Of a DNA stretch of 64,000 bases, positions 5,905 to 46,600 are shown piece by piece. The stretch's first letter is position 1, and every line of letters begins with the position of its first letter. Location: positions 68,320-132,319 of the IMG/VR virus record IMGVR_UViG_3300010396_000001. The stretch is one strand, 5' to 3'. A program made the position numbers and the translations under genes. The DNA is from a virus. Taxonomy: Duplodnaviria > Heunggongvirae > Uroviricota > Caudoviricetes. The notes under the pieces are model-generated. The model saw only the letters and a program-made list of their open reading frames with translations. It did no database searches and was not told where the DNA came from.

Positions 5905-8418
5905 ATGCCCTCAGACAGCGGAACTCCCGCGCCATGGCCAGATGACGCGGGAGTCCCGAGCGAGATCACTTCTTCTTCTGCCGCTAACAATAGCGAGAGA
6001 ACAGATGAGCCGCAACAAGAGCCGCGGAATGTAGCTTTCGGCAGCCTGCCCCGCGCTCACGAGCAGCGCCGCCTGGAGCTGCTGGATGCCGCGGTCGGCT
6101 ATGCCCAGATGGGCTGGCGGATCATCCCGCTGTGCTGGACCGAGGACGACGGGTCCTGCGGCTACAGCGGCCACAACAAGCGCGAGAAGTGCACGAGCGC
6201 GGGCAAGCGCGCAATTCTGGACGACTGGCCGAACCGGGCGACCAGCGACCCGGTGATCGCCGCCCAGTGGTGGCGCCAGCCCTCGGCCCCGCTCGACACC
6301 GAGGAATGGTACCCCCTGGCCAGCATCGGCCTGGTTCTCGGTGAGGACTCCGGCGTCTTCGCCCTGGACGTCGATCCCGAGCACGGCGGCCTGGAGCGCC
6401 TGGAGGCCCTGCAGCAGCGGCACGGGCCGCTGCCTCCGACCCGCGTGCACCAGACGGGCAGCGGCGGCGAGCATTACCTGTGGCGCCATCCGGGGTTCCG
6501 GGTGCACAACCTCAAGCCCTGGGGTAAGGACGCCGGGCTGGACGTCAAGGGCGACCGCGGGTACATCGTCCTGCCGCCCAGCCGCAGCTACAAGGGGGAG
6601 TACACCGTCTCGGCGGTCATGGCCGAGGCCGAGGTGCTGGTCGCGCCCGAGTGGATCCTGGAGCCCCTGCGCAGCGCCAACGCCGCCCAGCACGGCGAGC
6701 GCACCGGCAACGCCGAGGCACTCCCGACCCGGCTGCTCAGCCGGTACACCGAGAGCGCCCTGAAGGGCGAGGCCTTCGCGGTGGCCGGCGCCCCCGACGG
6801 CGACATGAACAACTCGCTGAACAATGCCGCGCTCAAGCTCGGCTCGCTCGGCGCGCACGGCCTGATCAGCGAGGACGAGGCCCGCAACGTGCTGCGTGAT
6901 GCCTGCGTGCAGAACGGCTACATCCACTGGAAGGGCATCGGGGCGTTCGAGGCCACTTTCCGCTCAGGCTGGAAGGCGGGCCTGGCCCGGCCGCGGGACC
7001 TGGCCGGCATCGGGGGCCTGACCGAGCAGGAATGGCCCATCCTGCCCTGGGACGACTTCGGCCTGTCCGACCGCATGGTTGTCTACTACGGCGATCAGAT
7101 GAGGTGGGTAGAGGACTGGCAGACCTGGATGACCTACCGGGCCGGATCCTGGTCCCGGCAGTTCGTCACCGAGGCCGAGCGCCTGGCCGAGACCATGATG
7201 CGGCTGCTGCGGGTCACCGAGAAGCCCCTGTACGCCGGTGACGGTGACGGGGACAACGAGAACTCGCCCCGGCAGAAGTTCGAAGCATGGCTCACCAGGT
7301 CCAGCACCCACGCCAAGGTGGCCTCCACCGTCAAGCTGGCCCGGCACCGGCCGTCGCTGCGGGCCAGCCCGGACCAGTTCGACGGCCAGCCGGCCATGCT
7401 GAACGTGACCAACGGCATCGTCAGCCTGGAGGGCGGCACGATCGCCCCGCACTCGCCGGAGTCCATGCTCACGCTCAAGGCCGCCGCGGACTTCAACCCG
7501 CGGGCCGTGTGCCCCCGCTGGGAGGCCTTCCTCGCCCGGGTGCAGCCCGACCCGGAGATCCGCTCCTACCTGCAGCGGATCACCGGCTACTCGGCGACCG
7601 GCTCGATCCGCGAGCAGGTGTTCTTCCTGCACCACGGCACCGGCGCCAACGGCAAGTCCGTCTTCCACGACGTGGTCATGCACGTGCTCGGCAGCTACGT
7701 CCAGTCCGTCCCGGTCGAGGCGCTGATGGCCTCGGGCGCCGACCGCATCCCTAACGACATCGCCCGCATGGTCGGGCGCCGGTACCTGACCGCCTCGGAG
7801 ACCAAGGCAGGCCGTTTCCTGGATGAGGCGCGGCTGAAGCAGCTCACCGGCGGCGACACTATCTCCGCCCGGTTCATGCGGGGGGAGTACTTCGAGTTCA
7901 AGCCGGTCGGCAAGATCCACCTGATCACTAACCAGCTGCCCAGGCTGTCGGAGGACTCGGCTACCTGGCGCCGGATCCACCTCATCCCCTGGGGCGAGGT
8001 CATCCCGGAGTCCGAGCGCGACGGCCTGCTGGCCGAGCGGCTGATCCGCGAGGAGTCCGAGGGGATCCTGCGCTGGATCGTCGAGGGCGCTACCCAGTGG
8101 TTCGCCATCGGCCTGTCGGCCCCGAGCACGTCGATCGAGGCGAAGGAGGAGTACGAGCGCGACGAGCAGACTCTCGGCCGCTGGATCGAGGAGGCCTGCA
8201 ACGTCTTCGAGGTGACCGATGACACGCGCCTGGCCAGCGGGGGCGAGAGGGGCGTCCTGTATGCCCACTACAAGATGTGGATGCAGACCAACGGCTTCCA
8301 GCCGGTCAACAACCGGAACTTCCACAGCGAGATGAAGACCAAGGGCTTCAGGGAGTCCAAGAGCCACGGGCGCCGGGGCTACCTCGGCATCAGCGTGCGG
8401 ATGGACGCCCAGAGCTAG
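5905..8418 (+). CDS. bifunctional DNA primase-polymerase / P4-D5 family SF3 helicase
   Basis: Prim-Pol N-domain (GWRIIPLCWTEDDGSCGYSGHNKREKCTSAGKRAILDDW), and a Walker A (HHGTGANGKSVF) in a D5_N/P4-alpha-like C-terminal region. Confidence 0.85.
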   Translation: MPSDSGTPAPWPDDAGVPSEITSSSAANNSERTDEPQQEPRNVAFGSLPRAHEQRRLELLDAAVGYAQMGWRIIPLCWTEDDGSCGYSGHNKREKCTSAGKRAILDDWPNRATSDPVIAAQWWRQPSAPLDTEEWYPLASIGLVLGEDSGVFALDVDPEHGGLERLEALQQRHGPLPPTRVHQTGSGGEHYLWRHPGFRVHNLKPWGKDAGLDVKGDRGYIVLPPSRSYKGEYTVSAVMAEAEVLVAPEWILEPLRSANAAQHGERTGNAEALPTRLLSRYTESALKGEAFAVAGAPDGDMNNSLNNAALKLGSLGAHGLISEDEARNVLRDACVQNGYIHWKGIGAFEATFRSGWKAGLARPRDLAGIGGLTEQEWPILPWDDFGLSDRMVVYYGDQMRWVEDWQTWMTYRAGSWSRQFVTEAERLAETMMRLLRVTEKPLYAGDGDGDNENSPRQKFEAWLTRSSTHAKVASTVKLARHRPSLRASPDQFDGQPAMLNVTNGIVSLEGGTIAPHSPESMLTLKAAADFNPRAVCPRWEAFLARVQPDPEIRSYLQRITGYSATGSIREQVFFLHHGTGANGKSVFHDVVMHVLGSYVQSVPVEALMASGADRIPNDIARMVGRRYLTASETKAGRFLDEARLKQLTGGDTISARFMRGEYFEFKPVGKIHLITNQLPRLSEDSATWRRIHLIPWGEVIPESERDGLLAERLIREESEGILRWIVEGATQWFAIGLSAPSTSIEAKEEYERDEQTLGRWIEEACNVFEVTDDTRLASGGERGVLYAHYKMWMQTNGFQPVNNRNFHSEMKTKGFRESKSHGRRGYLGISVRMDAQS

Positions 8419-14200: not shown

Positions 14201-14586
14201 TGACCCCGGCCGCGTTCGAGGAGATCGACGCCATCCAGCCGGGGCTGCGCATGCACTCGCGCAATGCCGCCCGGCTGCTGCCCGGCGCTCCCCGCGGCAG
14301 CTACCCGGTCATCGCAGTGCACGACGGACTGCGCTCGGCCATCACCCGGCGGGGCTCGGTGATGTGGTGGCAGCGCCTGGTCACCGAGGTCTCCGTGCTG
14401 TCGGTTGCCGTCTTCTCGCCGCGCCGCGAGGATGACCCTGACCTGCCCTCAGCGGTCCGCTACCTGCAGCGGGGCACCGTGGTGCTGGCCGAGGTCGTGA
14501 AGGACTCATACGTCACCCCCTCAGGCCAGCCTCGTGTATCGTGGCGGCTGGAGAGCGTCGCTCCGCTGAAAGGTTCATTGTCATGA
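11248..14586 (+). CDS. dnaE: DNA polymerase III alpha subunit (DnaE-type, PHP domain N-terminus)
   Basis: HLHNHTDYSALDG PHP motif, GLLKLDFLTLRTLD palm motif and FNLSHAYSYATLSYWTAWLKAHYP. The true start is probably the ATG at 11248 (MTFAHLHNH) rather than the ORF start at 11149. Confidence 0.9.
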   Translation: MTFAHLHNHTDYSALDGLTFPAEAAGRAASLGQSALAITDHGVCSGHPAHQKACDDEGIKPIFGMEGYWVPDRLERPAAGDKEAQQRLRANRHLILLAASDKGLRDLWALSTEAYASGFYYRPRCDDELLERYGSDLIVTTSCLGGLVSRDLLDGSLDAAGQRLARWRDMFPGRFYLEIQGNALPEQRRLNMLLAQMGDILDIPLVAASDAHYPSAAESELHRLWMSCQTSPANDAYWNYIHMQDESEVRDLLGYLDPRCVDSAIHNSFEIAEQCNARIGGIADPPHFTASHEEDASLLLDLCIAAWDRIRVPGRKQEYRDRLEREWQLVSRKHLAGCYLIVHDVIRYARSRGELPGPGRGSAAGSLMSYLLAITSMDPVRTGLMFERFVTPGRTSLPDFDMDFASSARTHIQDYVISKYGAERVVRVGTHMRYRSKAVLNKLFSILRPDVTDDPPRIASIIDEAESHTAGLGLPWDDLMEEAASPLEAFIERYAGVFEAASRLVGHLNSYGQHPAGLVISTSQDLASSLPMRTGDKGQQISQWDFRTLDTLGLLKLDFLTLRTLDSIQQAIRLVSVRTQQPPDPLSWEAEHDDPQAWDEICAGNTLGMFRIETSLGMDFCRRMKPRSLPDLGALIALVRPGPRNSGVAEAYLRRRAGLEEVTYPHPLLEPYLGRSYGLMIYQEDILSACRVLAGYDDAEADEVRSILGKKKKEKIPAAGEKFVRRCFEHSGIKPEDGEKIFAQIAEFGKYGFNLSHAYSYATLSYWTAWLKAHYPVETITAILSTLSDKDRMPAFAVEARRMGITVLPPDVRISGAGFTAEALSIRYGLSSIKGLGPAALTSITAAQPYQSMDDFVARSKADAGVIYALAQAGALDPLVASRRALVMRLQADRSGDATRCTFKDESVHGPNELPCTFDWASEPEPEPRYGRKGQPLKVIPLKIPARCTRACRHYSPPALSFAGVPEYSAGELWRLETDIYGTWMTPAAFEEIDAIQPGLRMHSRNAARLLPGAPRGSYPVIAVHDGLRSAITRRGSVMWWQRLVTEVSVLSVAVFSPRREDDPDLPSAVRYLQRGTVVLAEVVKDSYVTPSGQPRVSWRLESVAPLKGSLS

Positions 14587-14846
14587 CGACATCGAAGGTC
14601 GTGGCGCCCTGGACATCAGACCAGGTAGCGAGCCTGAATGGCTATCAGGAGTCAGGCAAGTTCCATCCGTTCACCTGCGGGAACCCTGACTGCCCCCGGA
14701 TCAGGGACCGGCCCTCGGTGCTCATCGCCCGCGTGCCCGGCTGGGTATGCCCGATGAACTGCGGCTACCAGCAGGACTGGGCCCACGACTGGATGGCGAA
14801 CGGGTCCTGGAAGGACATGAGCAAGACGCGGGGAACTGCACCATGA
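14583..14846 (+). CDS. small hypothetical Cys-containing protein
   Basis: ATG overlaps the dnaE stop (ATGA). Contains FTCGNPDCP and CPMNCG. Confidence 0.5.
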   Translation: MTTSKVVAPWTSDQVASLNGYQESGKFHPFTCGNPDCPRIRDRPSVLIARVPGWVCPMNCGYQQDWAHDWMANGSWKDMSKTRGTAP

Positions 14847-15061
14847 CGGCTACCCGGAGGGCCCTTGAGAATATCGGCCTGTTTCTTGCATGGGCCGCCG
14901 CTTCTCGCGGAGGTGATGAGACGCCGATTACCTATCCGTACGCTCTCCCGGCGGATAAAGCTCCGCCGCGGTTTTCGCTGGGAGACCTGAAGCAGGTATA
15001 TGAGGTCGCACGGCTCTCTTACGAAAGAGTCCCGGCAGTGCCCGAGGATACTGCGCCATGA
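14843..15061 (+). CDS. small hypothetical protein
   Basis: ATGA overlaps at both ends. 72 aa. Confidence 0.45.
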   Translation: MTATRRALENIGLFLAWAAASRGGDETPITYPYALPADKAPPRFSLGDLKQVYEVARLSYERVPAVPEDTAP

Positions 15062-16026
15062 GCAGCGGGACTGAGATCCGGGAGGCAGTGAGGCTGCTCA
15101 GCACGGCTCGTTATCCTGCTGACGTCTTTCCGGATGACCCGGATCAGGCCAGGAAGCGCTACCGCCAGCTGGCCGGGCTGCTGCATCCTGACCGGAACCC
15201 GGCCACCGAGGACGTCTTCGCCAAGCTCACCACCTTGTGGAATGAGTACCAGAATCCTGCTCCCTCCGTCATTCACGGGGATATCGCTGACCTGTTTCCC
15301 GTCCCGGAGGGCCTGCTCAAGATAACGCGCCAGCCTGCTGATAATGACCTGATGGCACGGGAGGCAGAAGCACTTACCCGGCTGCATTTCAGTGACCTGG
15401 AGAAGTACCAGGCATTCTTCCCCGAGCTGATCTCCGCCGGGCGCCAGCGCGATCCTGCCACGGGCAATATCCGGCACGTAAACACCCTGCGCAGGCTAGA
15501 GGGATTCTTCACGCTGGAGGAAGTCCAGCGAGCCTACCCGGCGGGCCTGGAACCGCGGGACATCGCATGGATATGGCGGCGCGTCCTGACTGCGCTCGGC
15601 GCCGCTCACTCCGCGGGCATCATTCACGGGGCGGTTCTTCTGCCGCACATCATGATTCACCCGGCCGATCACGGGCTCGTGCTCGTTGACTGGTGCTACT
15701 CGTCCTCGCAGAAGAACATGCGAATTCCCGCTGTCGTCCGGAAATACAAGTACTGCTATGCCCCTGAGATCCTTAATAAGGAAGTTCCCTCTCCGGCCGC
15801 TGATATCTACATGGCCGCGAAAGTCATGGCCGCTCTTCTCGGGGATCCCGGCAAGCCGGGATATTACCAGCTGCTGGCTTTTGCCAAGGGCTGCATGCAT
15901 CAGCGCCCGACATGGCGGCCTCAGCAGGCGTGGAGACTGCTGAAAGAGCTAGATGAGCTGCTGGAGCGGATATTCGGGCCGCCCCGGTTCCATCCGTTCG
16001 CGATGCCCGCGAACGTCAGCAACTAG
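15058..16026 (+). CDS. J-domain protein fused to a protein-kinase-like fold with degenerate catalytic motifs (probable pseudokinase)
   Basis: N-terminus ARKRYRQLAGLLHPDRNP...FAKLTTLWNEY is a J domain with HPD. C-terminal region has IIHGAVLLPHIMI (HRD replaced by HGA), LVDWC (DFG-like) and YAPEIL (APE motif). Confidence 0.6.
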   Translation: MSSGTEIREAVRLLSTARYPADVFPDDPDQARKRYRQLAGLLHPDRNPATEDVFAKLTTLWNEYQNPAPSVIHGDIADLFPVPEGLLKITRQPADNDLMAREAEALTRLHFSDLEKYQAFFPELISAGRQRDPATGNIRHVNTLRRLEGFFTLEEVQRAYPAGLEPRDIAWIWRRVLTALGAAHSAGIIHGAVLLPHIMIHPADHGLVLVDWCYSSSQKNMRIPAVVRKYKYCYAPEILNKEVPSPAADIYMAAKVMAALLGDPGKPGYYQLLAFAKGCMHQRPTWRPQQAWRLLKELDELLERIFGPPRFHPFAMPANVSN

Positions 16027-16042: not shown

Positions 16043-17032
16043 ATGGGAGGCGGCAGCTACTCAGCTTCCACTTACGATGCCGTGCGCTCGTATAACTCCA
16101 CGCACGGGATCGACGACTTCGTCTATGCCGCCAGCGGCGCCACCACGACGCACGAGTCCCTGGACGTCAAGGGCAAGGGCCTCGACGGCAAGGGCGCCAC
16201 CCGCGAGAGCCGCGACAGCGCCGAGCATCCGCTCTCGCTGCCGATCGCGATCTTCGAGGACGTGACCGGCTCGATGGCCAGCGTCCCGCGGCTGCTGCTG
16301 GACAAGCTGCCCCAGCTGCAGGGCCTGCTGCAGCGCAAGGGCTACGCCACCGACCCGCAGATCATGTTCGCCGCCATCGGCGACGCCACGGTGGACAGCG
16401 CCCCGCTGCAGGTCGGCCAGTTCGAGTCCGACAACCGGATGGACAGCGACCTCACCAACCTCCTGCTCGAAGGCGGCGGGGGCGGCGGCCGGCAGGAGTC
16501 CTATGAGCTGGCGCTGTACTTCCTCGCCCGCCACACGGCCACCGACAGCTGGGAGAAGCGCGGCCATCGCGGCTACGCCTTCATCATCGGCGATGAGATG
16601 GCCTACCCGTTCGTCAAGCGCGCTGAGGTCGCCGAGCACATCGGCGACACCCTGCAGGACAACATCCCGCTCCAGGAGATCCTCGACGAGGTCCGGCAGA
16701 AGTGGGACATCTACTACATCCTGCCCGAGGGAGCCTCTTACGTCGGCGATGCCGAGCACCTGGCCTTCTGGCGCGGGCTGCTCGGGCAGAACGTGATCGA
16801 GCTGGGCAGCCTGGACGCGGTCTGCGAGACGATCGCGCTGACCATCGGGCTCGCCGAGGGCACCACCGACCTGACCACGGGGCTGTCCGACCTGAAGGAC
16901 GTCGGCTCCTCCTCCGGCGATGTCGTCTCCAGGGCGCTGGCCACGATCGGGTCGGCGACCGGCCGGGGCGGCGTGGTGGCAGCGCCGCCGCCCGGTGCTC
17001 TTGACGCTCCCAGCGGCAGCGAGCGCCTCTGA
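16043..17032 (+). CDS. von Willebrand factor A (vWA) domain protein
   Basis: RBS AAAGGAGAC. MIDAS-like LPIAIFEDVTGSMASV (DxTxS), vWA-like alternation of hydrophobic strands, Gly-rich linker. Confidence 0.55.
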   Translation: MGGGSYSASTYDAVRSYNSTHGIDDFVYAASGATTTHESLDVKGKGLDGKGATRESRDSAEHPLSLPIAIFEDVTGSMASVPRLLLDKLPQLQGLLQRKGYATDPQIMFAAIGDATVDSAPLQVGQFESDNRMDSDLTNLLLEGGGGGGRQESYELALYFLARHTATDSWEKRGHRGYAFIIGDEMAYPFVKRAEVAEHIGDTLQDNIPLQEILDEVRQKWDIYYILPEGASYVGDAEHLAFWRGLLGQNVIELGSLDAVCETIALTIGLAEGTTDLTTGLSDLKDVGSSSGDVVSRALATIGSATGRGGVVAAPPPGALDAPSGSERL

Positions 17033-17035
17033 CAT

Positions 17036-18332
17036 GAAAACTCCCCGCCATTACATCGTGGCTGACCTCGGCTACGGGGACAGCGGGAAGGGCACGGTGA
17101 CGGACTGGCTCTGCTCACGCGACGCGGAGCCGGCCCGTCTCGTGGTCCGCTATAACGGCGGTGCCCAGGCCGGCCACAACGTCGTGCTGCCGGACGGCCG
17201 TCACCACTGCTTCAGCCAGTTCGGCTCCGGCACCCTGCAGGGTGCGCGCACCCACCTGTCCCGGTACATGATGGTGGACCCGCTCGCCCTGACGGCCGAG
17301 GCCGAGCACCTGACCGGGCTCGGCATCGCCAGCCCGTACTCGCTGCTGACCGTGGACCGGGATGCCCTGCTGACCACGCCCTATCACATCGCGGCTAACC
17401 GGGCCCGCGAGCTGGCCCGCGATGAGGACCGGCACGGCTCCTGCGGCAAGGGCATCGGCGAGACTGCCCGCTATGCCGAGCAGCATCCGCTGCGGGCTCC
17501 CAGGGCCGTGCATGCGCTTGCGCCCAGGAACATGGCTCGTTACCTGGATGCGCTGCGGCGGCAGCTGGAAGAGGAACTCGGGCCGCTGCAGGACGTGCCG
17601 GAGGTCAGCGAGCTAACTCGTGCCTACGCTGCCTTCGCCGACTGCGTCCGGCTGACGAGCGGGAATTACCTGACGCACCAGCTGGAAAGCGAGTCGGCGG
17701 TATTCGAGGGAGCGCAGGGCGTCCTGCTCGACGAGACCTACGGATTCCAGCCGTACACCACCTGGAGCACGACCACATTCCGCAATGCGGAACGACTGCT
17801 TGCTCCTTCTGGCATCAAGGGCCTGCGCATCGGGGTAATCCGCACCTACATGACCCGGCACGGGCCGGGTCCGTTCCCCACCGAGGACGAGATGCTCGGC
17901 ATTCCTGAGCCGCACAATCCCCCGAACGACTGGCAGGGAACAGCACGACTGGGGCACCTGGACGGAGTGGTGCTTCGCTATGCAGTTAAGGTCTGCGGCG
18001 GAACTGATTTCCTTGCGGTCACCCATTACGATGCGCACCTGGATAATGTTTACGGTGGTCCCGCGCTGAAGATATGCCCGGCCTACCTGAGCAGAGAGGG
18101 CCCCGTTATCCGGGAGATCAGTCACGCTCCCGATGATCCTGAAGGCCTCACGAAGACCCTGATAGGCGCTCGGCCGGTCTATATGCGCCTGCCCCAGCAC
18201 GGCTGGGGAGACCGGCTGCAGAAGATCACCGGGGTACCTGTCGGCATCGTCTCCCACGGGCCTACGTTCAGGCAGAAAGTCACCACCGACGCATGGGATG
18301 AAGCGGTTGCCGGCGCAGTTCAGACGGGATAG
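17036..18332 (+). CDS. adenylosuccinate synthetase homologue (PurA-like; possibly PurZ, 2-aminoadenine pathway)
   Basis: IVADLGYGDSGKGTVTD (P-loop GDxGKG), RYNGGAQAGHN (catalytic His), FEGAQGVLLD, VSHGP. The RRRR motif of PurA is absent. ATG at 17036; the upstream extension to 16920 is rejected. Confidence 0.8.
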
Positions 18333-37458: not shown

Positions 37459-37983
37459 ATGGATGATGAGCGGCCAATTCTAGGACTTGATGTAGACGGC
37501 GTCCTTAATGCCCTTAATCAGGGCGCCACGCCGCCCGGGTGGGAGTTCACCACGGTTCGCGGCAACCTGCCGATCTGCTATAACCCCCGCCACGGCGAGC
37601 AGCTGCAGAAGATCGCCTCCGACGGCGGCGCCGAGCTGGTCTGGTGCACCATCTGGGAGGACCTGGCCAACGAGCACATCGCCCCGCTGGTCGGCCTGCC
37701 GCAGCTGCCCTGGGTCACGATGGACGAGTCCATGGCCGCCGTGATCGCCGAGCGGCGCATCAAGTTCAGCCAGGCCATCCCGGTAGGCGCCGTCAAGGCA
37801 CGGGCCATGGCCGTCTATGCCGCGGGGCGCCCGGTGTGCTGGCTGGAGGACGAGCCGGACGCGCCCGCCGAGTTCAGCTCCTACCCGGCCCCGCACCTGG
37901 TGGTGCAGACCGACTCGTTCGAGGGGCTGCAGGATATCCACCTTGCCGCGGCAGCAGCATGGCTGGCGTCGCTGCGCGCCTGA
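37459..37983 (+). CDS. HAD-superfamily phosphatase-like protein
   Basis: ILGLDVDGVL (DxDGx motif I of the HAD fold) at the N-terminus. Confidence 0.6.
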   Translation: MDDERPILGLDVDGVLNALNQGATPPGWEFTTVRGNLPICYNPRHGEQLQKIASDGGAELVWCTIWEDLANEHIAPLVGLPQLPWVTMDESMAAVIAERRIKFSQAIPVGAVKARAMAVYAAGRPVCWLEDEPDAPAEFSSYPAPHLVVQTDSFEGLQDIHLAAAAAWLASLRA

Positions 37984-38014
37984 GGTGCTGCCCGGAAGCC
38001 TTCAGGAGGTACCG

Positions 38015-41000
38015 GTGCCTGATCCCCTGATTGCTGCCTTCAGCGACCCCCCTGACCTGGCCGCTCACTTCGGCGCCCGCGAGCGCTACCCCCGCGGCCA
38101 GTCACGCTGCGACTGCTGCGAGGGCAGCGGCAGCCACGGCCGCGACAAGTGCCGCCGCTGCCGCGGGCTGGGCCACGTGAAGGAGGGCTCGGCTGAGCCC
38201 TGGTGCGAGGAGTCGGAGGCGCCCCGGCCCCGCCGCCGGCACTGGCGGGAGAGCGAGCGCACCGCCTCGGACACCGGCTACCGCCAGTCGCACGAGGCGC
38301 CGGGCGATGACGACTACGGCGACCGGCTGCACGAGGTGGGCACGAAGCCCGGCGGCGGCATCTACCCGCCCGATGCCCTGAAGCGCCCGCATGACTACGG
38401 GGCCTTCCACTCCGAGACCGCCGACAAGGTGCGGCGGGCCAGCGGGAAGCCCGATCACAAGGTCTGGGTCTATCGCTCGATGCCCTCGCCGCACCGGGAG
38501 ATCAACACCGGCGACTGGGTGGCCACGGCCGCCGAGTATGCCCGCCAGCACGGCCGCGAGTCCAGCGCTGCCGACGACTGGCCGGTGATCAAGTTCCAGG
38601 CCCGCGCTGATCAGCTGTCCAGCGTCGGCGACATGGAGGAGTGGGGCTACCACGGTCCCCCGGTGAAGCGGGGCCTGGTGCACTTCAGGGGCGGCAGGAA
38701 CCAGCAGGGCGGCGTGCCCCGCGGCAAGACCGACGCCATGTGCCATGAGCACGAGCCGCAGGAGATGCAGGAGCACTACGGCCGGATCACGAACGAGCGC
38801 GTCAAGCGCCGGGGCGACGAGCGCGAGGCGCAGGGCCTGCCGCGGTACCGCACCCGGTCGCAGGGCGCCCGCCAGCCCTATGTGGTCTACCACGGGGCCC
38901 ACCATGACGACGTGCCCTCGATCCTGCGCGAGGGCCTGCGTCCCGGCATCCGCGGCGCCACGGTCACCGACAGCCGCGAGGGGGCCTCGCTGATCGCTCA
39001 CATGCGCGACTGGACCGACCCGCGGGTGGTCGAGATCCACGTCCCGCATGCCGAGCGCGACGCCTACCTCGGCGCTGGCCAGGACGGGCCCGAGGGCACC
39101 GCGCACGAGCTGCGCCGCCAGCTGCCCGCCAGCTGGGTGGCTCAGGTGCACACCGCCGCTTACGATGCGCCGCCGCGGGAGTATTCCGCCGGGCGCATGC
39201 TGGTGGCCGACATCAGGATCCCCGGCGAGGGACGGCTGTCCGAGCGCCCCTACACCCAGCGCGAGCTGGCCGCCGACATCCGGCGCAACGGCGTGCAGCA
39301 GCCCGTTGCCGTCGAGCACCTGCCCGCGCACGGCGGCCCGACCTCGTTCAACGGCATGCACCGCCTGGACGCCGCCCGCCGCGCCGGGGTCGCCGACGTG
39401 CCGGTGGTCGTCAAGCACCTGCCCGGCCAGCCCCCGCCCATGACCGGGCGCCGGGCGGCCAGCGAGCAGGAGTTTAACGATGCCTTCGACCTGGAGCGCG
39501 AGGGTCGGTGGGCCGGGCAGCACGAGGCGGCTCGCATCCTGCACCTCCCGCTGCACATGGTGAGCGAGATGGGCTCCGAGTACGGCCAGGATGAGCACGG
39601 CCGCCGGATCACCATGGCTGACATCGGGAAGTACTCTCCCGAGCGGATGGCGGATGAGCGCTACGCGCCAGCTGATCTGCGGGCCATGACTGAGAGCGTG
39701 CGCCGGGGCGGCGTCCGGAAGGCGCTGGACGTCGAGACAACCTCCGACGGGGACCGCGGCATCGTGCTGGACGGCACTCACCGGTACTGGGCAGCGGCCC
39801 AGGCCGGGCGCTCGCACGTGCCGGTGCGGTTCCACGGGCCTGACCCGGACCGGGCCCGCGCGCACTACCAGCAGCGCATCGAGAATGAGGAGCAGCGTCC
39901 CGGATCAGCGCGCACCGGGTCAGCTGAAGGACCCTGGTACCACGGCACCACTGATGAGTACGCGCCCGGCGACCAGATCGAGCACCACTACTGGAAGAAG
40001 TACCCGGACCGGCCTGATTTCCGCCAGCACAGCCCGCTGTACGTGACCGGGAACCCGTCCCTGGCCGCCCACATCGCCGACCTGCGGGAGCGCCAGTCCG
40101 GCCGCAGGGTGCCCGGCCGCATGTATGAAGTGAGGCCGTCCGGCTCCCTGTCCCCTGATGAGATCGCCGCCCCGATCGTGCGCAACCGTGATTCCTGGCA
40201 GGCGACCTCGCCGCTGCACGTGATCAGGGAAGTGCCCCGCGGGGAATGGCCGCAGGACCTGAGCGCCTGGCGCGTCACGCAGCAGCATGAGGGCCGCAGG
40301 CTGCCTGACTGGCTGGAGGAGACGTTCGAGCATGCGAGGAGCAGCCTGGCGAGCCTGCCCGCGTGGGCGCGCCCGGTGGTGACCCATCCAGCCCCCCGGC
40401 TATCTAGTCGCTCCGATGATCACCCTCCGCTTAGCCCGCAGCGCCATGACCAGGGACGGGTTTCAGGGTCAGCCGGCAGTGAGCATCGATCCGGGAGTGG
40501 TCATCCTCCGGTTACGGGCGCCCCCCGTATCAAGGTGCCTCTCGAAGGTGGCCACAACTGGGAGGAGAACCTGCGGCTGCTGCGTCATCGCAAGCGCAGT
40601 GAGCCCCTCATGCACCGGGGGATCGCGGTCGAGCTGCCGCCGGAGGTGCACAGCTTCGTTCATGATCAGTTCCAGGACCGGGACCGCCAGGCCCGTGCCA
40701 TCGCCGAGCACCTGCGCGGCCGTCCTCTCGGCATGCACTGGTCGGCCGGCGAGAAGACGCCCCGCCATTTCGCTGACTTCGAGAAGAAGAAGAGCCTGCC
40801 CGGCTCGACCAAGGTCATCCTGCACGCAGCCCTGCCCGAGGTTGATCACATCGAGACGGACCGGGAGAAGCTCGCCGAGGGCGGCGTGCTCGGCTACGGG
40901 GCCATGGGCAGCAGCGAGTACGAGATCCCGGTGAAGGCCGGGGCACCGGTGCGCATCAAGGGCATCACCTGGTATGGCTACGGCAACCGCAAGCGCAGCG

Positions 41001-43456
41001 GGAATCTCTACGATCACGTTCACGAGGCCAGCCTGCGCACTGCTGCGGTGCCTGAGTACGGCCTCCGGCCTGAGTTCCGGATGGCTCCCGAGGACTGGGA
41101 CGATGAGCGCCGCTCGGCCTATCACGAGCAGCAGTTCGGAGCCGAGCGTGCCTGGCGGCGCAGCATGCGCAACGGCCTGTCAATGGGCCACCTCACCAAC
41201 GAGCAGGCCCTGGGCCTGGGCTACCACGGCCGCGGTCATGATCAGTCCTCCTACCACGCCGGCCCGGCCTGGAAGCCGTTGCCGCATGACCTCTACCACG
41301 TCACCACCGACATGGAGGGCGTCCGCCGCCATGGCCTGCTGGCTCCCGATGAGCGTGAGAACTTCCGGCCCACTGGCCTCGGCGGCAGCGAGGACGACTC
41401 GGTCTCGCTGACCTCCAGCCACGAGCGGGCCCGCGGCATCCTGCGGGCGATGCGCGAGTATCACCACGCGCTGCACTCTGACCCGCATGAGCTGTGGGAG
41501 CGGGCGCAGAGGGGCGACCAGGGCTCGGAGCCCTTCCATCGTGACCTGGCCCGCTACCATGACCGCGACTGGGAGCCCGGCCAGGAGCTGCCCCGCGAGC
41601 TGAGCGACCAGCTGAACGGCACCCGGCATGAGCACGGCATGGCCACGCGCGAGGAGAAGCCAGGCTGGACCCCGCTCGACGAGGGCATGAAGACGCCGAG
41701 GGGGCACTACCACTTCGGCTGGGAGCGCCCGGCCACCGACGAGGAGAAGCTGCACCAGCGCTCGGACCTGTTCAAGCACTTCGTGGCCTACCGCGGCTGG
41801 GCGGGCGGCCCGGAGAACCCGACGTTCATGGGCAACGACCCGAAGGCGTTCAGCAAGCTCGATCCCTCGAACTTCGGCATCGTGCACCTGCATCCGCACC
41901 CCGGCGCCCAGGGCTACCACCTGCCCGCCGAGGACGAGTACCGGATCACCACCGGCAAGGCGGTCTACCCGCACCACTGGCAGCACGAGGCAGCCTCCCG
42001 CAAGATCGCGGCCTCCTCAGCTCCGCACCCGGGCCGCCTGCAGGGCGGCTCCTGCAGGGAGTACTGCACCTACGGCGGCACCCACTGCGCGGTCTGCCAC
42101 GAGCCGGTGAAGATCAACCTGCACAAGACCGAGGTCAACGGCGGCTGGCATCACCACGACAGCATCAAGCGCGACCACCCGGCCGTCCCCGCCGACCCGC
42201 AGGGCGTGATCGACTCGATCCCCGGCCAGCTGGCCAGCAGGGACCAGGTTCGCGCCGAGGTGGCTGACACCTTCCACCGCCAGCTGGAGGAGTACGGCGG
42301 CCGGCCGCTCCCCCGCCGCGGTGACGACCAGCTGCCCCCTGACCCGTTCACTCACGAGGGAGCGCGGGTGCCGTCCTCAGGCGCATCTTTTTACCGGGGC
42401 GGCCGGCAGGAATATCAGCCAGGTGACCTGATCTCGCCTCAAGATAGCACTCACGTCTATGCCACCTCTCATGCTGCCAATGCCAAGATGTATGGCCCGC
42501 ATGTTTATGAAGTGGAATTCACTGGTCCGCACGAGCCTGATCCGGAGTATCTCGGTAATGGTGCTTTCCGGCGCTCGGTGCATCCGGTGCGCGTGATCAG
42601 AGACGCGACGGAGCATGCCACGGCTGAGGTAGGCGCAAGGCATTTCGGCGCCTGGGTGCCCAGCTCAGGTGTCTTCGGTCCCACTACCGGCCTCGACCCG
42701 CAGCTCTTCACTGAGGCGCAGCAGCTGCGCCCGCAGGTCCGCGAGGCGATCCTGGAGCGCCTGGCGGTAAGCCTGCATCAGCTGCTTGGCGAGGGGTGGC
42801 AGTCCCTCGTCCGGGTCTACCTCGCGGGGGGGAGCGCCAGCGAGTGGGCTGGCGCCCGCCCAGGTGAGCAGGGGGCTCGTGATCTCGACGTCCTCATCGG
42901 CCCGCAGGACCCGCAGGGTCTCGCCCGGGAGACTGGCCACGACGGCGTGGCCGGGAGCGGTCCGCACGCCGTGGGTGAAGGCGAGCAGGTAGCTCAGGTC
43001 ATCAACCGCGTCCTGCGGGCTCACTTCAATGATGAGCACTGGCTCCCCGGTTTTGGCGGGTCCTGGTCCCTGACTGGCTATTACAATCCGCATGCCGGCG
43101 ACATTACCGCGATCCATCCGTATGCGGCCTGGGACCTGACGAACAGCCGGTGGGCCGTGAAGCCGCCGCATCTGCCGCACCACTCGGTGGCTGACTTCGA
43201 CCCGGCCGTGATCCGTCATGCACGGGCCATGGCCACCGAGGCCCGTGCCATCCTGCAGCTGCCCGAGCCGTTCCGTCACCAGCAGGCGAGGGACCTGTGG
43301 GACCGGCTGCACGCCGCCCGCTCGCGGGCCTTCTCCGACGAGGGCGCGGGCTGGCAGGATCCCGGTAACCTGGCCGAGAAGTGGCTGGCCTACAGCCCCC
43401 GCAATATCCTCGGCAGGATCAAGGAGCTGGCTCATGGCGCCGCCGGACCCGCTTGA
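38015..43456 (+). CDS. giant polyvalent protein (about 1814 aa): DnaJ-type CxxCxGxG zinc finger, two ParB-like domains, several Arr-like ADP-ribosyltransferase-like modules
   Basis: GTG at 38015 with RBS AGGAGG (the ORF start at 37817 is rejected because it overlaps the HAD gene). ParB-like GMHRLDAARRAGVADVPVVV (about 39290-39430) and LDGTHRYWAAAQAGRSHVPV (about 39700-39830). Arr-like HGT...PGD...YEV.P.G...VIR modules at about 39935-40245 and 42375-42610. Confidence 0.75.
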   Translation: MPDPLIAAFSDPPDLAAHFGARERYPRGQSRCDCCEGSGSHGRDKCRRCRGLGHVKEGSAEPWCEESEAPRPRRRHWRESERTASDTGYRQSHEAPGDDDYGDRLHEVGTKPGGGIYPPDALKRPHDYGAFHSETADKVRRASGKPDHKVWVYRSMPSPHREINTGDWVATAAEYARQHGRESSAADDWPVIKFQARADQLSSVGDMEEWGYHGPPVKRGLVHFRGGRNQQGGVPRGKTDAMCHEHEPQEMQEHYGRITNERVKRRGDEREAQGLPRYRTRSQGARQPYVVYHGAHHDDVPSILREGLRPGIRGATVTDSREGASLIAHMRDWTDPRVVEIHVPHAERDAYLGAGQDGPEGTAHELRRQLPASWVAQVHTAAYDAPPREYSAGRMLVADIRIPGEGRLSERPYTQRELAADIRRNGVQQPVAVEHLPAHGGPTSFNGMHRLDAARRAGVADVPVVVKHLPGQPPPMTGRRAASEQEFNDAFDLEREGRWAGQHEAARILHLPLHMVSEMGSEYGQDEHGRRITMADIGKYSPERMADERYAPADLRAMTESVRRGGVRKALDVETTSDGDRGIVLDGTHRYWAAAQAGRSHVPVRFHGPDPDRARAHYQQRIENEEQRPGSARTGSAEGPWYHGTTDEYAPGDQIEHHYWKKYPDRPDFRQHSPLYVTGNPSLAAHIADLRERQSGRRVPGRMYEVRPSGSLSPDEIAAPIVRNRDSWQATSPLHVIREVPRGEWPQDLSAWRVTQQHEGRRLPDWLEETFEHARSSLASLPAWARPVVTHPAPRLSSRSDDHPPLSPQRHDQGRVSGSAGSEHRSGSGHPPVTGAPRIKVPLEGGHNWEENLRLLRHRKRSEPLMHRGIAVELPPEVHSFVHDQFQDRDRQARAIAEHLRGRPLGMHWSAGEKTPRHFADFEKKKSLPGSTKVILHAALPEVDHIETDREKLAEGGVLGYGAMGSSEYEIPVKAGAPVRIKGITWYGYGNRKRSGNLYDHVHEASLRTAAVPEYGLRPEFRMAPEDWDDERRSAYHEQQFGAERAWRRSMRNGLSMGHLTNEQALGLGYHGRGHDQSSYHAGPAWKPLPHDLYHVTTDMEGVRRHGLLAPDERENFRPTGLGGSEDDSVSLTSSHERARGILRAMREYHHALHSDPHELWERAQRGDQGSEPFHRDLARYHDRDWEPGQELPRELSDQLNGTRHEHGMATREEKPGWTPLDEGMKTPRGHYHFGWERPATDEEKLHQRSDLFKHFVAYRGWAGGPENPTFMGNDPKAFSKLDPSNFGIVHLHPHPGAQGYHLPAEDEYRITTGKAVYPHHWQHEAASRKIAASSAPHPGRLQGGSCREYCTYGGTHCAVCHEPVKINLHKTEVNGGWHHHDSIKRDHPAVPADPQGVIDSIPGQLASRDQVRAEVADTFHRQLEEYGGRPLPRRGDDQLPPDPFTHEGARVPSSGASFYRGGRQEYQPGDLISPQDSTHVYATSHAANAKMYGPHVYEVEFTGPHEPDPEYLGNGAFRRSVHPVRVIRDATEHATAEVGARHFGAWVPSSGVFGPTTGLDPQLFTEAQQLRPQVREAILERLAVSLHQLLGEGWQSLVRVYLAGGSASEWAGARPGEQGARDLDVLIGPQDPQGLARETGHDGVAGSGPHAVGEGEQVAQVINRVLRAHFNDEHWLPGFGGSWSLTGYYNPHAGDITAIHPYAAWDLTNSRWAVKPPHLPHHSVADFDPAVIRHARAMATEARAILQLPEPFRHQQARDLWDRLHAARSRAFSDEGAGWQDPGNLAEKWLAYSPRNILGRIKELAHGAAGPA

Positions 43457-43680
43457 TCGAGACTGCCGACCATGCCGATCCCCTTGCTGCAGGCGGCTAC
43501 GTGGCTGCCGTCGGCAGCTTCCTGCTCGCCGCCATCGGCTTCGAGCCGGAGGGAAAGGCCGAGGTGATGATAGAGATCGGCGCCGATCCCGAGCCGGACA
43601 AGGCGCGCATCATCCTGAGCTGGCCGCTGCCTGAGCAGGGGCCCGCCACCACCGGCCAGGGGTGCCCGGAAGCCATGTGA
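43453..43680 (+). CDS. small hydrophobic protein (TTG start), uncertain
   Basis: TTG overlapping the upstream stop. High GC3. Its stop overlaps the GTG of the next giant gene (GTGA). Confidence 0.3.
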   Translation: MIETADHADPLAAGGYVAAVGSFLLAAIGFEPEGKAEVMIEIGADPEPDKARIILSWPLPEQGPATTGQGCPEAM

Positions 43681-46600
43681 CTGACCTGCTCGACCACTTC
43701 GCCGCGCCTGACCTCATGGAGCACTTCGGGGCCTACTACTATCACGGCACTAACCGGGACCTGAAGCCCGGCGACATGATCGAGCCGGGGCATGAGCAGG
43801 TCTGGGAGGGGTCGTCTCCGCATCACGTCTACATGACCCCCGACCACGACCTGGCGCACATGTACGCTGAGACGGCTGCCGCCATGAAGGAGCACGGCAG
43901 CCCTCGCGTCTACACCGTCGAGCCCACCGGCCCGCATGAGGACGACCCGGAGTTCGGCCGCGATGACGACGCCACTGAGGGCCTGGAGTCCTACCGGTCA
44001 GCTCACCCGCTGCGCGTGATCGAGGGCGCCGCCGACGCGGGCTTCCCCAATCCCTACCACGGCACCGCGCAGTTCGGCGGCCGTCCCGAGTGGTCTCGCA
44101 CGTGGTTCCACGGCACGAGGGGCGTCCCGGAGTTCGGCGAGCGCCGCGGGCACGGCGACGACGTCGCCCGGACGCGCCTCCCGTTCGGGGAGCGCATGAA
44201 GGGCAGCGGCTGGCCGCAGCCCAACCAGATGATGGGCGTGCACTTCAGCCCGCTGCATGAGGTGGCCCACAAGTTCGCGGGCTCGGTCTCCTCCACTCCG
44301 TCGGCGATCGTCCACGCCCGGCTGCACATGAGCAACCCGGCGCACTACCCCTCGGAGATGCACCTCAACTACGCAGTCGCGCACTGGGCCAGCCAGCATT
44401 ACCCGCACTGGCATGACCAGAAGGTCAATGATCACCTGGGCTGGAACTACTCCGACCGCGAGGGCACGCACCGCGACTTCTCCTCGGTACCGGACCGGAA
44501 GTACGCTCACGACAAGGCTCAGGACGTCCTCCAGTGGCACCCGCACCTGCCCGAGATCCTGCACGGCTTCCGGCAGCACCTGCGCGAGCAGGGCCACCGC
44601 GGCATCACCTACGGCAACAACGTCGAGGGCCCGTACGAGACCGATGCCACCCGCGGCGGCGAGGCGGGCATGAAGGCCATCCGCAAGCGCGAGGGCATGG
44701 GCGGCAGCCCGGTCTCGATCTCGGCGATCGTGCATCCGGGTGACATCGAGATCACTCATGCCGAGCACATCTCGCCCTGGCGCAAGGAGCCTGAGCCGCA
44801 CGAGCGCACCTGGGAGGCCGTCAGCGACGCCGACGAGCCCGACGAGATGCGCGACCGGGTCCTGGCCTGGCACCGCGAGCACGGCGGCGCCTACCCCCGC
44901 CAGGAGCGCACTGCCGCCCGCATGGCCGCCTCCGGGAGCCAGCTGGAAGGCCGTGACTACGAGGGCACCGAGGGCAACCCGAGCCACATCACGCGCACCG
45001 AGCTGGGCATGATCCGCACCGACGCCATCGCCGGGCTGCACGGGGTCAAGGGCGAGCGGCCCGGCGAGCACCGTAACCGGCAGGGCGCGAAGTGGGACGA
45101 GTTCAAGCAGGACATCGCGAGTAACGGCATCAGGCACCCGGTCTTCATCACCGTTGATCACGGCGAGGAGCCGAAGATCAGCGAGGGCAATCACCGGCGG
45201 GACGCCGCGGTCGAGCTGGGCCACAGCCACGTGCCGGCCGAGATCACCTACTTCGGCCATGCCGAGCGCGCGGGCACCGTGGAGTCCAGGGGCCTGTCCC
45301 GGCACAGCCGCCAGCGCATTGACGAGCACCTGCGCACCCATAACTGGTGCGCCCAGTGCAGCCGCGACGTCCGCAAGGACGAGTGGGCCCGGCACGTGAA
45401 TGATCATCACCGGACGGCTGCCCGCTCCCCGGTCATGTATCACGCCTCGCCTTACCACAACCGGGCCGGTATCGCCCGGCTGCACCCGCACACTGCAGCG
45501 GCTGGCCGCGTCTGGTACCACGGCACGCCTGACGAGCGGACCTGGGAGCACGGCGCCGGATATGGCATTCACATCGGTACCGAGGATGCTGCACGCCAGG
45601 CGCTGCATGCCCGCATTGGCAAGCCGGCTGAGGGCGAGTGGGATGGCACCCGTGAGTACGGCAAGACACTGCTGAACCGGGATCAGCGCCGCTGGGAATG
45701 GAAAGACGGCAAGATGACCGATCATGTCGATCATCATCCGCCGTCTTATCCAGATCCGGAAGGAGGCCCGTCATATTCGGGCGGCGAGCGCATTCCCATG
45801 GATGCGCGCCCGAGTGTCTTCCCGGTGCATATCAAGGGCCCGATGACAAATACCCCTGATAATCCGCACCCGGACTTTCATGCCAATGGTTACATGCACG
45901 GGCAGATTAAGCGCGGGAGAGCAAAGTCGGGGTACTTCTATACAAATGTCAGCGAGGACGAGGGATCTATCTCTGCGGTTGTTCCCTCGGCTGCGCACCT
46001 GGAGCGCATTCACCCGCCGCATGAGGCCGCGCGCAGGACTACGGCGGTATCGCACTGGCAGCACCGCGACTGCGGCGTCTATGCCTATGCCCTGACCCAG
46101 AAGGACCCGGCCCTGCGGATCGGCGAGCTGAGTGAAGAAGAGCACAAGATGCTCCCGGCTGCACACCGCCATATCCGAGAGAACAAGGTCCTGGGAGATC
46201 GCGGCCAGAAGACCGCTAAAAGCGAGAAGCCGACGCGCTCGAAGGCCAGCGTTAATTACCGGCATGCCACGGGAAAGCACCGGTGCGGCAACTGCGTGAT
46301 GTTCCGGCTGCATTCCCCGGACTTCGAGTCAGGCGGCTGCACCCTGGTGAAGGGAGCGATTAAGGCAAGCGATACCTGCGATAAGTGGTATCCGCAGGAT
46401 AAGGCGAGTAAGAGCGGGGGCCTGCTTGCCCACTTCGGCGCGGCCGAGGACGACGAGCCCAACCGGGCCGTTCATGCGCTGGTTGAGCACAGGGTCAGCC
46501 AGCAGCACCCCGAGGTGAATGAGCCCGTCACCGATCACACCGCCACGCTGCGGGCGATGCTCGGCCGGGCCAGCTTCTTCATGCCCCGCGAGGAGATCGA

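Follow-up and report, generated by a model that had tools for sequence, protein, structure and literature searches.

A phage J-domain protein with a catalytically degenerate kinase fold is encoded in a three-gene module with vWA and PurA-like partners

The window analyzed here is a stretch of 64,000 nucleotides from a virus of the class Caudoviricetes (positions 68,320 to 132,319 of IMG/VR record IMGVR_UViG_3300010396_000001), and the subject of this report is a gene at 15058..16026 on its plus strand that encodes a J domain joined to a kinase-like (pseudokinase) domain. The gene is a single ATG-start open reading frame (ORF) of 322 amino acids, and its ATG overlaps the stop of a preceding, non-conserved ORF (ATGA). 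Next on that strand come a gene for a von Willebrand factor A (vWA)-type protein and a gene for an enzyme of the PurA superfamily. The sequence motifs LLHPDRNP, IIHGAVLLPHIMI, DWC, YAPEIL and ADIYMAAKVM are all located in the translation of the 322-aa ORF, with HPD at residues 43-45 (nt 15184-15192), HGAVLLPH at 190-197, DWC at 211-213, APE at 235-237, and Asp249 (D249) within ADIYM. A Pfam scan of the protein returned APH (E 1.6e-6, above threshold) and Pkinase (1.1e-5), and a PHROGs scan assigned it to phrog_3043, 'kinase' (5e-48); no NCBIfam model came near its cut-off. The identical protein is present on a 160,727-bp contig. None of the PADLOC defence kinases (MkoA, PD-T4-6, Stk2) matches the 322-aa protein over its full length. 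The best PADLOC match (2.7e-8) is weak and covers the kinase domain only and part of a 1112-position model, and the vWA partner has no match. Since PADLOC gives only generic kinase-domain similarity, membership in a known defence system was rejected. The gene has a GC content of 61.6% and a third-codon-position GC content (GC3) of 74.6%, the lowest among seven genes checked (GC3 of 93% for the vWA gene, 79% for the PurA-like gene and 84% for the polymerase gene), in a window of 68.1% GC, possibly a sign of weaker codon adaptation or of a different history.

The kinase-like domain comprises residues ~70-318 (15265..16011, plus strand) and holds Lys88 (K88), Glu102 (E102), the APE motif at residues 235-237 and D249 of helix alphaF. 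Structure prediction gives the 322-aa protein a bilobal kinase fold, and the Foldseek matches include J-PKAc chimera structures (8fe2) in an alignment that spans both domains. When the protein was compared to PDB using phmmer, residues 156-268 aligned to M. tuberculosis PknE, pairing IIHGAV with ATHRDV, LVDWC with LVDFG, YAPE with MAPE, and ADIY with ADIY. Likewise, a profile of 60 family sequences has CK2alpha kinases as its top matches, and it pairs HGAVLPEH with HRDVKPHN and DWC with the DWG that is natural to CK2. These alignments therefore place the sequence HGAVLLPH (15625..15648, plus strand) at the HRDxKxxN position of the catalytic loop, with Ala192 standing in for Asp, Leu194 for Lys, and His197 for Asn. 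DWC (15688..15696, plus strand) lies at the DFG position, pairing with DFG in PknE and with DWG in CK2, and it keeps the metal-binding Asp211 (D211). The beta3 Lys, K88 (nt 15319-15321), lies in a strand at residues 85-90, and the alphaC Glu, E102 (nt 15361-15363), lies in a helix at residues 93-111; both of these roles were assigned by position in the AlphaFold2 (AF2) model and not by sequence alignment of the N-lobe. The glycine-rich loop has shrunk to a G-D dipeptide.

This degeneracy extends across the family. Among 60 close homologs, H190, A192, D211-W-C-Y, K88, E102, D249 and HPD are invariant, and H197 is found in 58/60. Across 90 loci collected with the J-pseudokinase as the seed, A192, K88 and E102 are each present in 90/90, H197 in 89/90 and D211 in 85/90, the exception at H197 being an Asn in cluster C phages. 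We also examined 138 distant representatives, which are 33-48% identical to the query and were drawn from the matches of a family hidden Markov model (HMM) search. Here, position 192 is occupied by A (125), G (7), S (5) or C (1), and never by D, E or N. Position 197 is H in 99 and N in 32 of the representatives, position 88 is K in 125 and R in 8, and the DFG Asp position is D in 99, G in 23, N in 9 and E in 6, meaning that the Asp has been lost in 39/138. E102 and D249, on the other hand, persist in 137/138 and 138/138, respectively. Loss of the DFG Asp is more frequent still in more distant phage copies. Given that catalytic residues are progressively lost while the fold and the J signature are kept, the pattern is that of a scaffold pseudokinase and not that of a cryptic enzyme. 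Absence of the HRD Asp, which is fixed throughout the family, also agrees with the sequence definition of a pseudokinase, in which at least one of the beta3 Lys, the HRD Asp and the DFG Asp is missing. An active kinase hidden by misalignment is ruled out, since the PknE and CK2alpha alignments and the fold put HGA at the HRD position. A relocated catalytic Asp was likewise rejected, since no conserved acidic residue replaces the missing one in either the 90 loci or the 138 representatives. Taken together, the predicted fold and these alignments show a genuine kinase fold of the Hanks type (PknB-like) in which the Asp, Lys and Asn of the catalytic loop are replaced family-wide.

The J domain occupies residues 1-68 (15058..15261, plus strand), as judged from AF2 secondary structure, a profile of the N-terminal region, the Pfam DnaJ match and HPD conservation. 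The AF2 model has an extra N-terminal helix (residues 4-16), a short helix I region (PADVF), helix II (28-42), HPD (43-45) and helix III (48-65). The N-terminal profile was built from the first 70 residues of 21 homologs and run against PDB, where it matched 63 chains at E <= 1, essentially all of which are J domains. The best match is RabJ (1.4e-6), and DNAJC5, CbpA, auxilin and polyomavirus large T are also among the matches, as is E. coli DnaJ, residues 16-50 of which are aligned at E ~1e-5. A Pfam DnaJ match at E <= 0.01 is found in 30/60 family members. HPD is kept in 60/60 close homologs, in at least 88/90 loci and in 133/138 distant representatives. Also conserved are Y35-R36-(R/Q)37-L38-A39 ahead of HPD and F54, L57 and W61 after it; going by DnaJ, we take the former to be the basic helix II and the latter to be the core of helix III. 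Furthermore, the J domain is canonical and complete in an ortholog at the same gene position on an IMG/VR contig (L110), which scores 56.5 bits against Pfam DnaJ over model positions 1-63/63. The canonical J domain of this ortholog, the profile matches to essentially nothing but J domains and the family-wide invariance of HPD rule out a chance tripeptide. These matches and conserved residues show the J domain of the 322-aa protein to be genuine, with an invariant HPD and a basic helix II. No homologs of DnaK or GrpE were found in the window by tblastn, and because no phage Hsp70 is encoded there, any J-domain activity must act on the DnaK of the host. To our knowledge, DnaK is universally encoded by actinobacterial hosts. 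From the conserved HPD and basic helix II, we infer that the J domain would recruit it.

These results agree well with the original prediction for this gene. It had described a J domain with an intact HPD, which is borne out by HPD at residues 43-45 and by the J domains that the N-terminal profile finds in PDB. It had also described a kinase-like region in which the catalytic Asp and the catalytic-loop Asn are replaced; both replacements are real (Ala192 and His197), and the Lys is replaced as well (Leu194). HGA, DWC, YAPEIL and ADIYMAAKVM, which had been quoted as kinase motifs, are present and align to the HRD, DFG, APE and alphaF segments of PknE. Structure prediction, which had been named beforehand as a possible source of refutation, returned a kinase fold, and an alignment check for misassignment of HGA and DWC confirmed both assignments, with true catalytic residues not found elsewhere. 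Thus, the reading of the protein as a J domain with a pseudokinase is supported by the fold, by the alignments and by the family-wide loss of the HRD Asp.

The first partner gene (16043..17032, plus strand) has a GGAG ribosome-binding site 7 nt before its ATG and encodes a 329-aa protein of the vWA type with a metal ion-dependent adhesion site (MIDAS)-like motif, identified from an AF2 model, Foldseek and phrog_2971 (2e-67). The AF2 model has a predicted local distance difference test (pLDDT) score of 71.8 and a well-predicted core, and its Foldseek matches are vWA/integrin I domains; the protein has no Pfam match. It possesses an invariant D-x-T-G-S (MIDAS-like), a GGGGG loop and a C-terminal extension that runs to ...PSGSERL-COOH, and it has more than 5,500 homologs, with ~60-65% identity in the best 120. 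The termini are predicted with low confidence (pLDDT < 50) and are presumably disordered, yet they contain conserved residues. The MGSG at the N-terminus hardly varies, and F27, H38, R55 and D59 do not vary at all. The C-terminus reads ...SGxxRL-COOH with an invariant last Leu; phage versions from loci lacking the J-pseudokinase (J-less loci) have short acidic tails ending [I/M]-L. These conserved termini look like peptide docking motifs.

The second partner gene (17034..18332, plus strand) starts 1 nt after the vWA stop and encodes a 432-aa enzyme of the PurA (adenylosuccinate synthetase) superfamily (PF00709, 1.3e-56; 1.7e-31 versus E. coli PurA). This protein misses the NCBIfam equivalog cut-offs for PurA (152.8 bits vs 402) and PurZ (38.3 vs 300), and since both scores lie far under the cut-offs, its identification as a genuine PurA or as a PurZ of the diaminopurine pathway was rejected. 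Its L-Asp-binding loop is divergent, with NDWQGT-ARLGHLD lying opposite GATTGRRRRTGWLD of E. coli PurA in a HMMER alignment, and the loop residues of E. coli PurA that we examined (T300, T301, R303 and R305) are not conserved. Equivalents of the P-loop Asp/Lys, His41 and Gln224 are kept, and the ligands of the inosine monophosphate (IMP) 5'-phosphate, N38 and T129, are changed. This pattern of residues may indicate an enzyme with a different amine donor, a different nucleotide, or both.

The J-pseudokinase gene and its two partners are tightly linked. In 90/90 J-seeded loci, the vWA gene comes directly after the J-pseudokinase gene, and in 89/90 the PurA-like gene comes after the vWA gene, the remaining locus ending first; the genes share one strand and lie a few bases apart. 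The same order of the trio is seen in the window and in Melpomini (gp255-258). Thus, the linkage of the trio is invariable in the actinobacterial chromosomes and actinophages that carry the J-pseudokinase. This invariant linkage is the decisive context that the original prediction missed. When vWA is used as the seed instead, a homolog is found in at least 92 viral contigs, many of 100-395 kb, and the PurA-like gene comes after the vWA gene in 77/80 loci, but the J-pseudokinase gene is present in 30/80. Therefore, the vWA and PurA-like genes constitute the core of the module, and the J-pseudokinase is a lineage-specific third component. Many of the IMG/VR contigs with the vWA/PurA-like pair are jumbo phages (100-395 kb) whose hosts are apparently low in GC, and most of these contigs lack the J-pseudokinase; one homolog is a vWA-PurA-like fusion protein (P0235, 521 aa). 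Among the J-less phages with this pair, no neighbouring third component with a J domain or a kinase was found; the neighbours are unrelated small proteins, such as a 127-aa coiled-coil-like ORF (27 loci) and a 354-aa ORF (13 loci). This widespread phage gene pair seems to be undescribed.

Searches of larger databases reveal a family that is large and uncharacterised rather than rare. A search of 1.84 billion cluster representatives with the family HMM returned 3,882 matches at E <= 1e-3 and at least 1,395 50%-identity clusters at E <= 1e-30. Among the matches listed, nearly all are 320-400 aa in length with both domains covered. Using tblastn, we found relatives in 203 phage records, all of which are cluster C/Bixzunavirus mycobacteriophages, at ~34% identity over 96% of the length, and these cluster C copies carry the label 'serine/threonine kinase'. 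Approximately 30 further large IMG/VR contigs carry a member of the J-pseudokinase family. With this many phage examples, the earlier suggestion that fusions of a J domain to a kinase are unusual in phages is wrong. Relatives also occur in at least 404 species of Actinomycetota (one genome per species scanned), in genera that include Actinomadura, Spirillospora, Micromonospora, Streptomyces, Nocardiopsis and Cryptosporangium, and many of these relatives are labelled 'molecular chaperone DnaJ'. Neither our literature searches nor a 2025 review of bacterial pseudokinase families (PMC12599244) yielded a description of a J-fused pseudokinase or of such a cassette.

The chromosomal loci differ from the phage loci in what precedes the trio. 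A gene for an NrtR-like Nudix regulator precedes it in 76 chromosomal loci and in none of the phage loci. This regulator combines Nudix with an NrtR-type winged helix (for example, L002 7171-8004 and L003 7249-8004), and its gene often abuts or overlaps the start of the J-pseudokinase gene. Its best NCBIfam match is an ADP-ribose-responsive repressor, at 108 bits versus a cut-off of 400, which suggests that the chromosomal trio is under the control of an ADP-ribose-like ligand. There is no support for the idea that the chromosomal copies are prophage remnants: in Actinomadura and Longispora they lie among ordinary genes of metabolism or regulation, and the presence of a regulator that belongs to the chromosomal cassette and is absent from phage loci also counts against it.

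A conserved small gene ahead of the J-pseudokinase gene was considered and rejected, as the 104-aa ORF at 14747-15061 is unlike the gene upstream in Melpomini and the upstream ORFs at locus L004 differ as well. A Cys-rich small ORF with no Pfam match (14541-14846, plus strand; ...CGNPDCP...CPMNCG...) lies ~200 nt before the J-pseudokinase gene. At L004, a Cys-rich DUF6085 ORF (7324-7665) is found in a comparable position, and a 1,666-aa Nudix-containing protein is encoded ~1 kb upstream. The vWA gene of Melpomini, gp256 (L001 6107-7888), is interrupted by an intein; its BLASTP pieces are 1-188 and 442-593, and weak Hint and intein-splicing Pfam matches lie between them. The counterpart of this intein-split gene in Pinkcreek is labelled 'HNH endonuclease' (PMC9476963). 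Insertion of an intein suggests that the vWA protein matters to the phage. Other products of the window are a primase, a terminase, a polymerase of the DnaE type and giant ParB-like proteins. Two adjacent giant ORFs at 37817-43456 and 43662-49862, both on the plus strand, encode 1,879 and 2,066 aa, and the first of these has several ParB-like segments according to PHROGs.

J-domain proteins decide which targets Hsp70 acts upon, and pseudokinases function as scaffolds and switches. The reading that we favour, and which we believe has about an even chance of being correct, is that the 322-aa protein is a J-domain co-chaperone with a specialised task, that of linking DnaK to the trio, and that its Hanks-type kinase fold, catalytically dead, serves as the targeting module. 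The pseudokinase would dock on the module, most plausibly on the C-terminal extension of the vWA protein and its ...SGxxRL tail; docking at this site is proposed because the extension is found only where the pseudokinase is present. Where the J-pseudokinase is present, the median end of the vWA HMM match is position 318 and 100/119 proteins have 'RL' termini; where it is absent, the median is 262 and 0/49 reach position 320. The vWA extension thus co-varies with the presence of the J-pseudokinase, in sets where the co-variation is confounded by phylogeny and some contigs are duplicated. Following docking, the J domain would trigger ATP hydrolysis by host DnaK, and DnaK would clamp the partner and then remodel, assemble or activate the vWA/PurA-like complex. 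In its logic this would resemble the MoxR-AAA+/vWA activase pairs, where a vWA adaptor holds the target enzyme and the ATPase remodels it, with Hsp70 taking the place of the AAA+ ATPase. The phage trio would in this way allow a nucleotide-modifying PurA-like activity to be made to work in the host by means of host DnaK. A vWA domain has been described as a Mg2+-dependent peptide-binding chaperone, and MoxR-vWA pairs are found in phages (PMC9503650, PMC7824862).

Besides the phylogenetic confounding of the tail comparison, several points weigh against this mechanism, which we infer from conservation and gene linkage. Of the vWA/PurA-like phage loci, 50/80 do without the J-pseudokinase. There are also phage orthologs (L093, L097, L102, L117 and L120/121) that consist of the kinase-like domain without a J domain, and therefore the pseudokinase can serve the module without recruitment of DnaK. 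The J domain of the 322-aa protein scores 21.7 bits against Pfam DnaJ (PF00226), under the cut-off of 27.8 (E 2.2e-4), in a match of residues 28-59 to model positions 14-48 of 63, and it lacks helix IV in the AF2 model because the N-lobe of the kinase follows directly. Finally, K88, E102, D211, H190, H197 and H205 vary little or not at all among close family members, and retention of these residues also fits a nucleotide-binding or atypically catalytic protein.

This retention figures in two alternative explanations. According to the first, the protein is a nucleotide sensor or regulatory subunit whose pocket binds a nucleotide, such as ATP/GTP or the product of the PurA-like enzyme, and switches conformation in response, with the J domain being secondary or modulatory. 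Retention of the Lys, the Glu and the DFG Asp is a typical signature of nucleotide-binding pseudokinases, and here the beta3 Lys and the alphaC Glu are retained, with the DFG Asp retained as well among close members. The partner enzyme handles nucleotides, the chromosomal copies lie behind a regulator of the ADP-ribose-sensor type, and orthologs without a J domain exist. However, distant members have lost the DFG Asp and in some cases the Lys, and HPD is as conserved as anything in the kinase domain, which is hard to explain if the J domain is dispensable. We consider this explanation unlikely. The second alternative is an atypical active enzyme, either a kinase or a nucleotide-dependent transferase of the SelO/SidJ type, with a J domain that docks on DnaK or DnaK-bound clients so that they can be modified. 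It seems improbable given that the catalytic-loop Asp, Lys and Asn are all replaced together, that position 192 is never acidic, that the glycine-rich loop is down to a G-D dipeptide, and that the DFG Asp is gone in ~28% and the beta3 Lys in ~9% of distant representatives in which HPD and fold residues persist. On the other side, near-invariance of K88, E102 and D211 together with H190, H197, H205, W212 and C213 in the close family suggests a selected pocket, the Pfam APH match lies above the gathering threshold, and phage annotators have applied the label 'serine/threonine kinase'. Several supposed pseudokinases were later found to catalyze other reactions.

A host-takeover factor that captures or diverts host DnaK, for example in heat-shock regulation, independently of the neighbouring genes has a precedent in Rki of phage RB43, which binds DnaK, shows J-domain toxicity and stabilises sigma32 (PMC3486835), and agrees with J activity that must target host DnaK for want of a phage Hsp70 in the window, but it is improbable here, since an anti-host weapon makes no sense for a protein that is chromosomal in at least 404 actinobacterial species, usually after an NrtR-like regulator among ordinary metabolic genes, since the strict vWA/PurA-like linkage in 90/90 loci argues for a module-specific function, and since J-less orthologs occupy the same gene position.

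The reading of the 322-aa protein as a J-domain co-chaperone with a pseudokinase targeting module can be carried further. The trio may be an unrecognised Hsp70-dependent 'activase' in which DnaK, enlisted by the J-pseudokinase together with the MIDAS/vWA adaptor, assembles or switches on a PurA-like enzyme whose specificity is new and whose aspartate-binding loop is replaced, under NrtR-like control in actinobacteria and borrowed by large phages. We offer this broader proposal tentatively, as something possible but rather doubtful. If DnaK does activate the enzyme through the vWA protein, the module would be an Hsp70-based counterpart to the MoxR/vWA activases and would point to previously unknown phage nucleotide chemistry. 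If the activase system as a whole proves true, it would define a new class of J-domain proteins with the pseudokinase as the client-binding module, and a new nucleotide-modifying pathway common to hundreds of actinobacteria and many large and jumbo phages. What is new here is the linkage of the trio at 90 loci and the vWA extension that is tied to the presence of the pseudokinase. The fixed fusion of a J domain and a pseudokinase, found in hundreds of actinobacterial species and in an entire cluster of well-studied mycobacteriophages, has been overlooked behind conflicting labels, namely 'serine/threonine kinase' for the phage copies and 'molecular chaperone DnaJ' for the bacterial ones. Its recognition as a dead kinase fold tied to vWA and PurA-like genes corrects both labels and provides a first functional handle on a three-gene module whose vWA/PurA-like core spans many large and jumbo phages. 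The question is directly testable, as M. smegmatis is a host of the cluster C phages and these phages are open to engineering.

With respect to known systems, the kinase-like proteins of the cluster C (Bixzunavirus, Bxz1-like) phages, such as Melpomini gp255 and Pinkcreek gp240, belong to the same family and share HPD (VHPDRV), HGA and DWCYS with the window protein. The gene order is also the same, with the kinase-like gene followed by the vWA gene and then the PurA-like gene. The cluster C copies differ in having an Asn at the catalytic-loop position where the window protein has a His, and their vWA gene is intein-split and labelled 'hypothetical' or 'HNH endonuclease'. The cluster C label denotes an active Ser/Thr kinase, and our motif analysis gives no support for this label. 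The kinase-like gene is listed as conserved in all C1 phages (PMC9476963); no functional study of its product was found in the literature.

Rki (gene 057w of the T4-like phage RB43) is likewise phage-encoded and has its J domain at the N-terminus; it targets host DnaK rather than working as a generic co-chaperone (PMC3486835). It is the first characterised phage-encoded J-domain protein and the only such one found in the literature searched, and it is an ORFan with no kinase-like domain (PMC3486835). By its description it is further set apart from the window protein in having no vWA/PurA-like partners and no chromosomal bacterial orthologs.

Bacterial pseudokinases provide a second point of comparison. 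As described in the review cited above, the families ActPs1-3 (including MviN), GLW, CP1, DYD and DLHK are Hanks-type, mostly actinobacterial, and thought to be scaffolds (PMC12599244). The window family shares with them a Hanks-type fold that has lost catalytic residues, an actinobacterial setting and a presumed scaffold role. For ActPs1-3 and GLW, the motifs are given as loss of all three catalytic residues, or Arg in place of Lys combined with HRN and deletion of DFG, or GLW, and the additions are PQQ, transmembrane or PAS; the review nowhere mentions a J domain, DnaJ or Hsp70 (PMC12599244). Going by these descriptions, the window family differs in keeping the Lys, the Glu and the DFG Asp, in its HGA...H motif, and in being cytoplasmic and fused to a J domain.

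GAK/auxilin-2 and the oncogenic chimera DNAJB1-PRKACA (J-PKAc) also combine a J domain and a protein-kinase fold in one polypeptide. In GAK, an active kinase at the N-terminus is combined with a PTEN-like region and with a J domain at the C-terminus that functions in clathrin uncoating, and J-PKAc is an accidental fusion with an active kinase. The window protein has its J domain at the N-terminus (that of GAK being C-terminal), its kinase is degenerate, and it is encoded in a prokaryotic/phage operon. The likeness is one of convergent architecture and not of homology of the fusion.

The MoxR AAA+/vWA pairs are a functional analogy only, in that a MIDAS vWA adaptor is found beside a recruiter of an ATP-driven remodeller. 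Pairs of this kind, such as CbbQ-CbbO and NorQ-NorD, are often encoded beside the enzyme that is being matured. Phage examples of MoxR-vWA pairs have been reported (PMC7824862). No AAA+ ATPase is present in the module described here, unlike in the MoxR/vWA systems, and the ATPase would instead be host DnaK, reached via the J domain. A pairing of Hsp70 or a J domain with vWA was not found in the literature searched. Lastly, the TerY-P triad consists of a vWA protein, a Ser/Thr kinase and a PP2C phosphatase. The TerY-P kinase is catalytically competent and paired with the phosphatase, whereas the window module has no phosphatase, a degenerate kinase fold and a PurA-like third gene. Nevertheless, in TerY-P as in the window module, a vWA protein is genetically coupled to a protein with a kinase fold.

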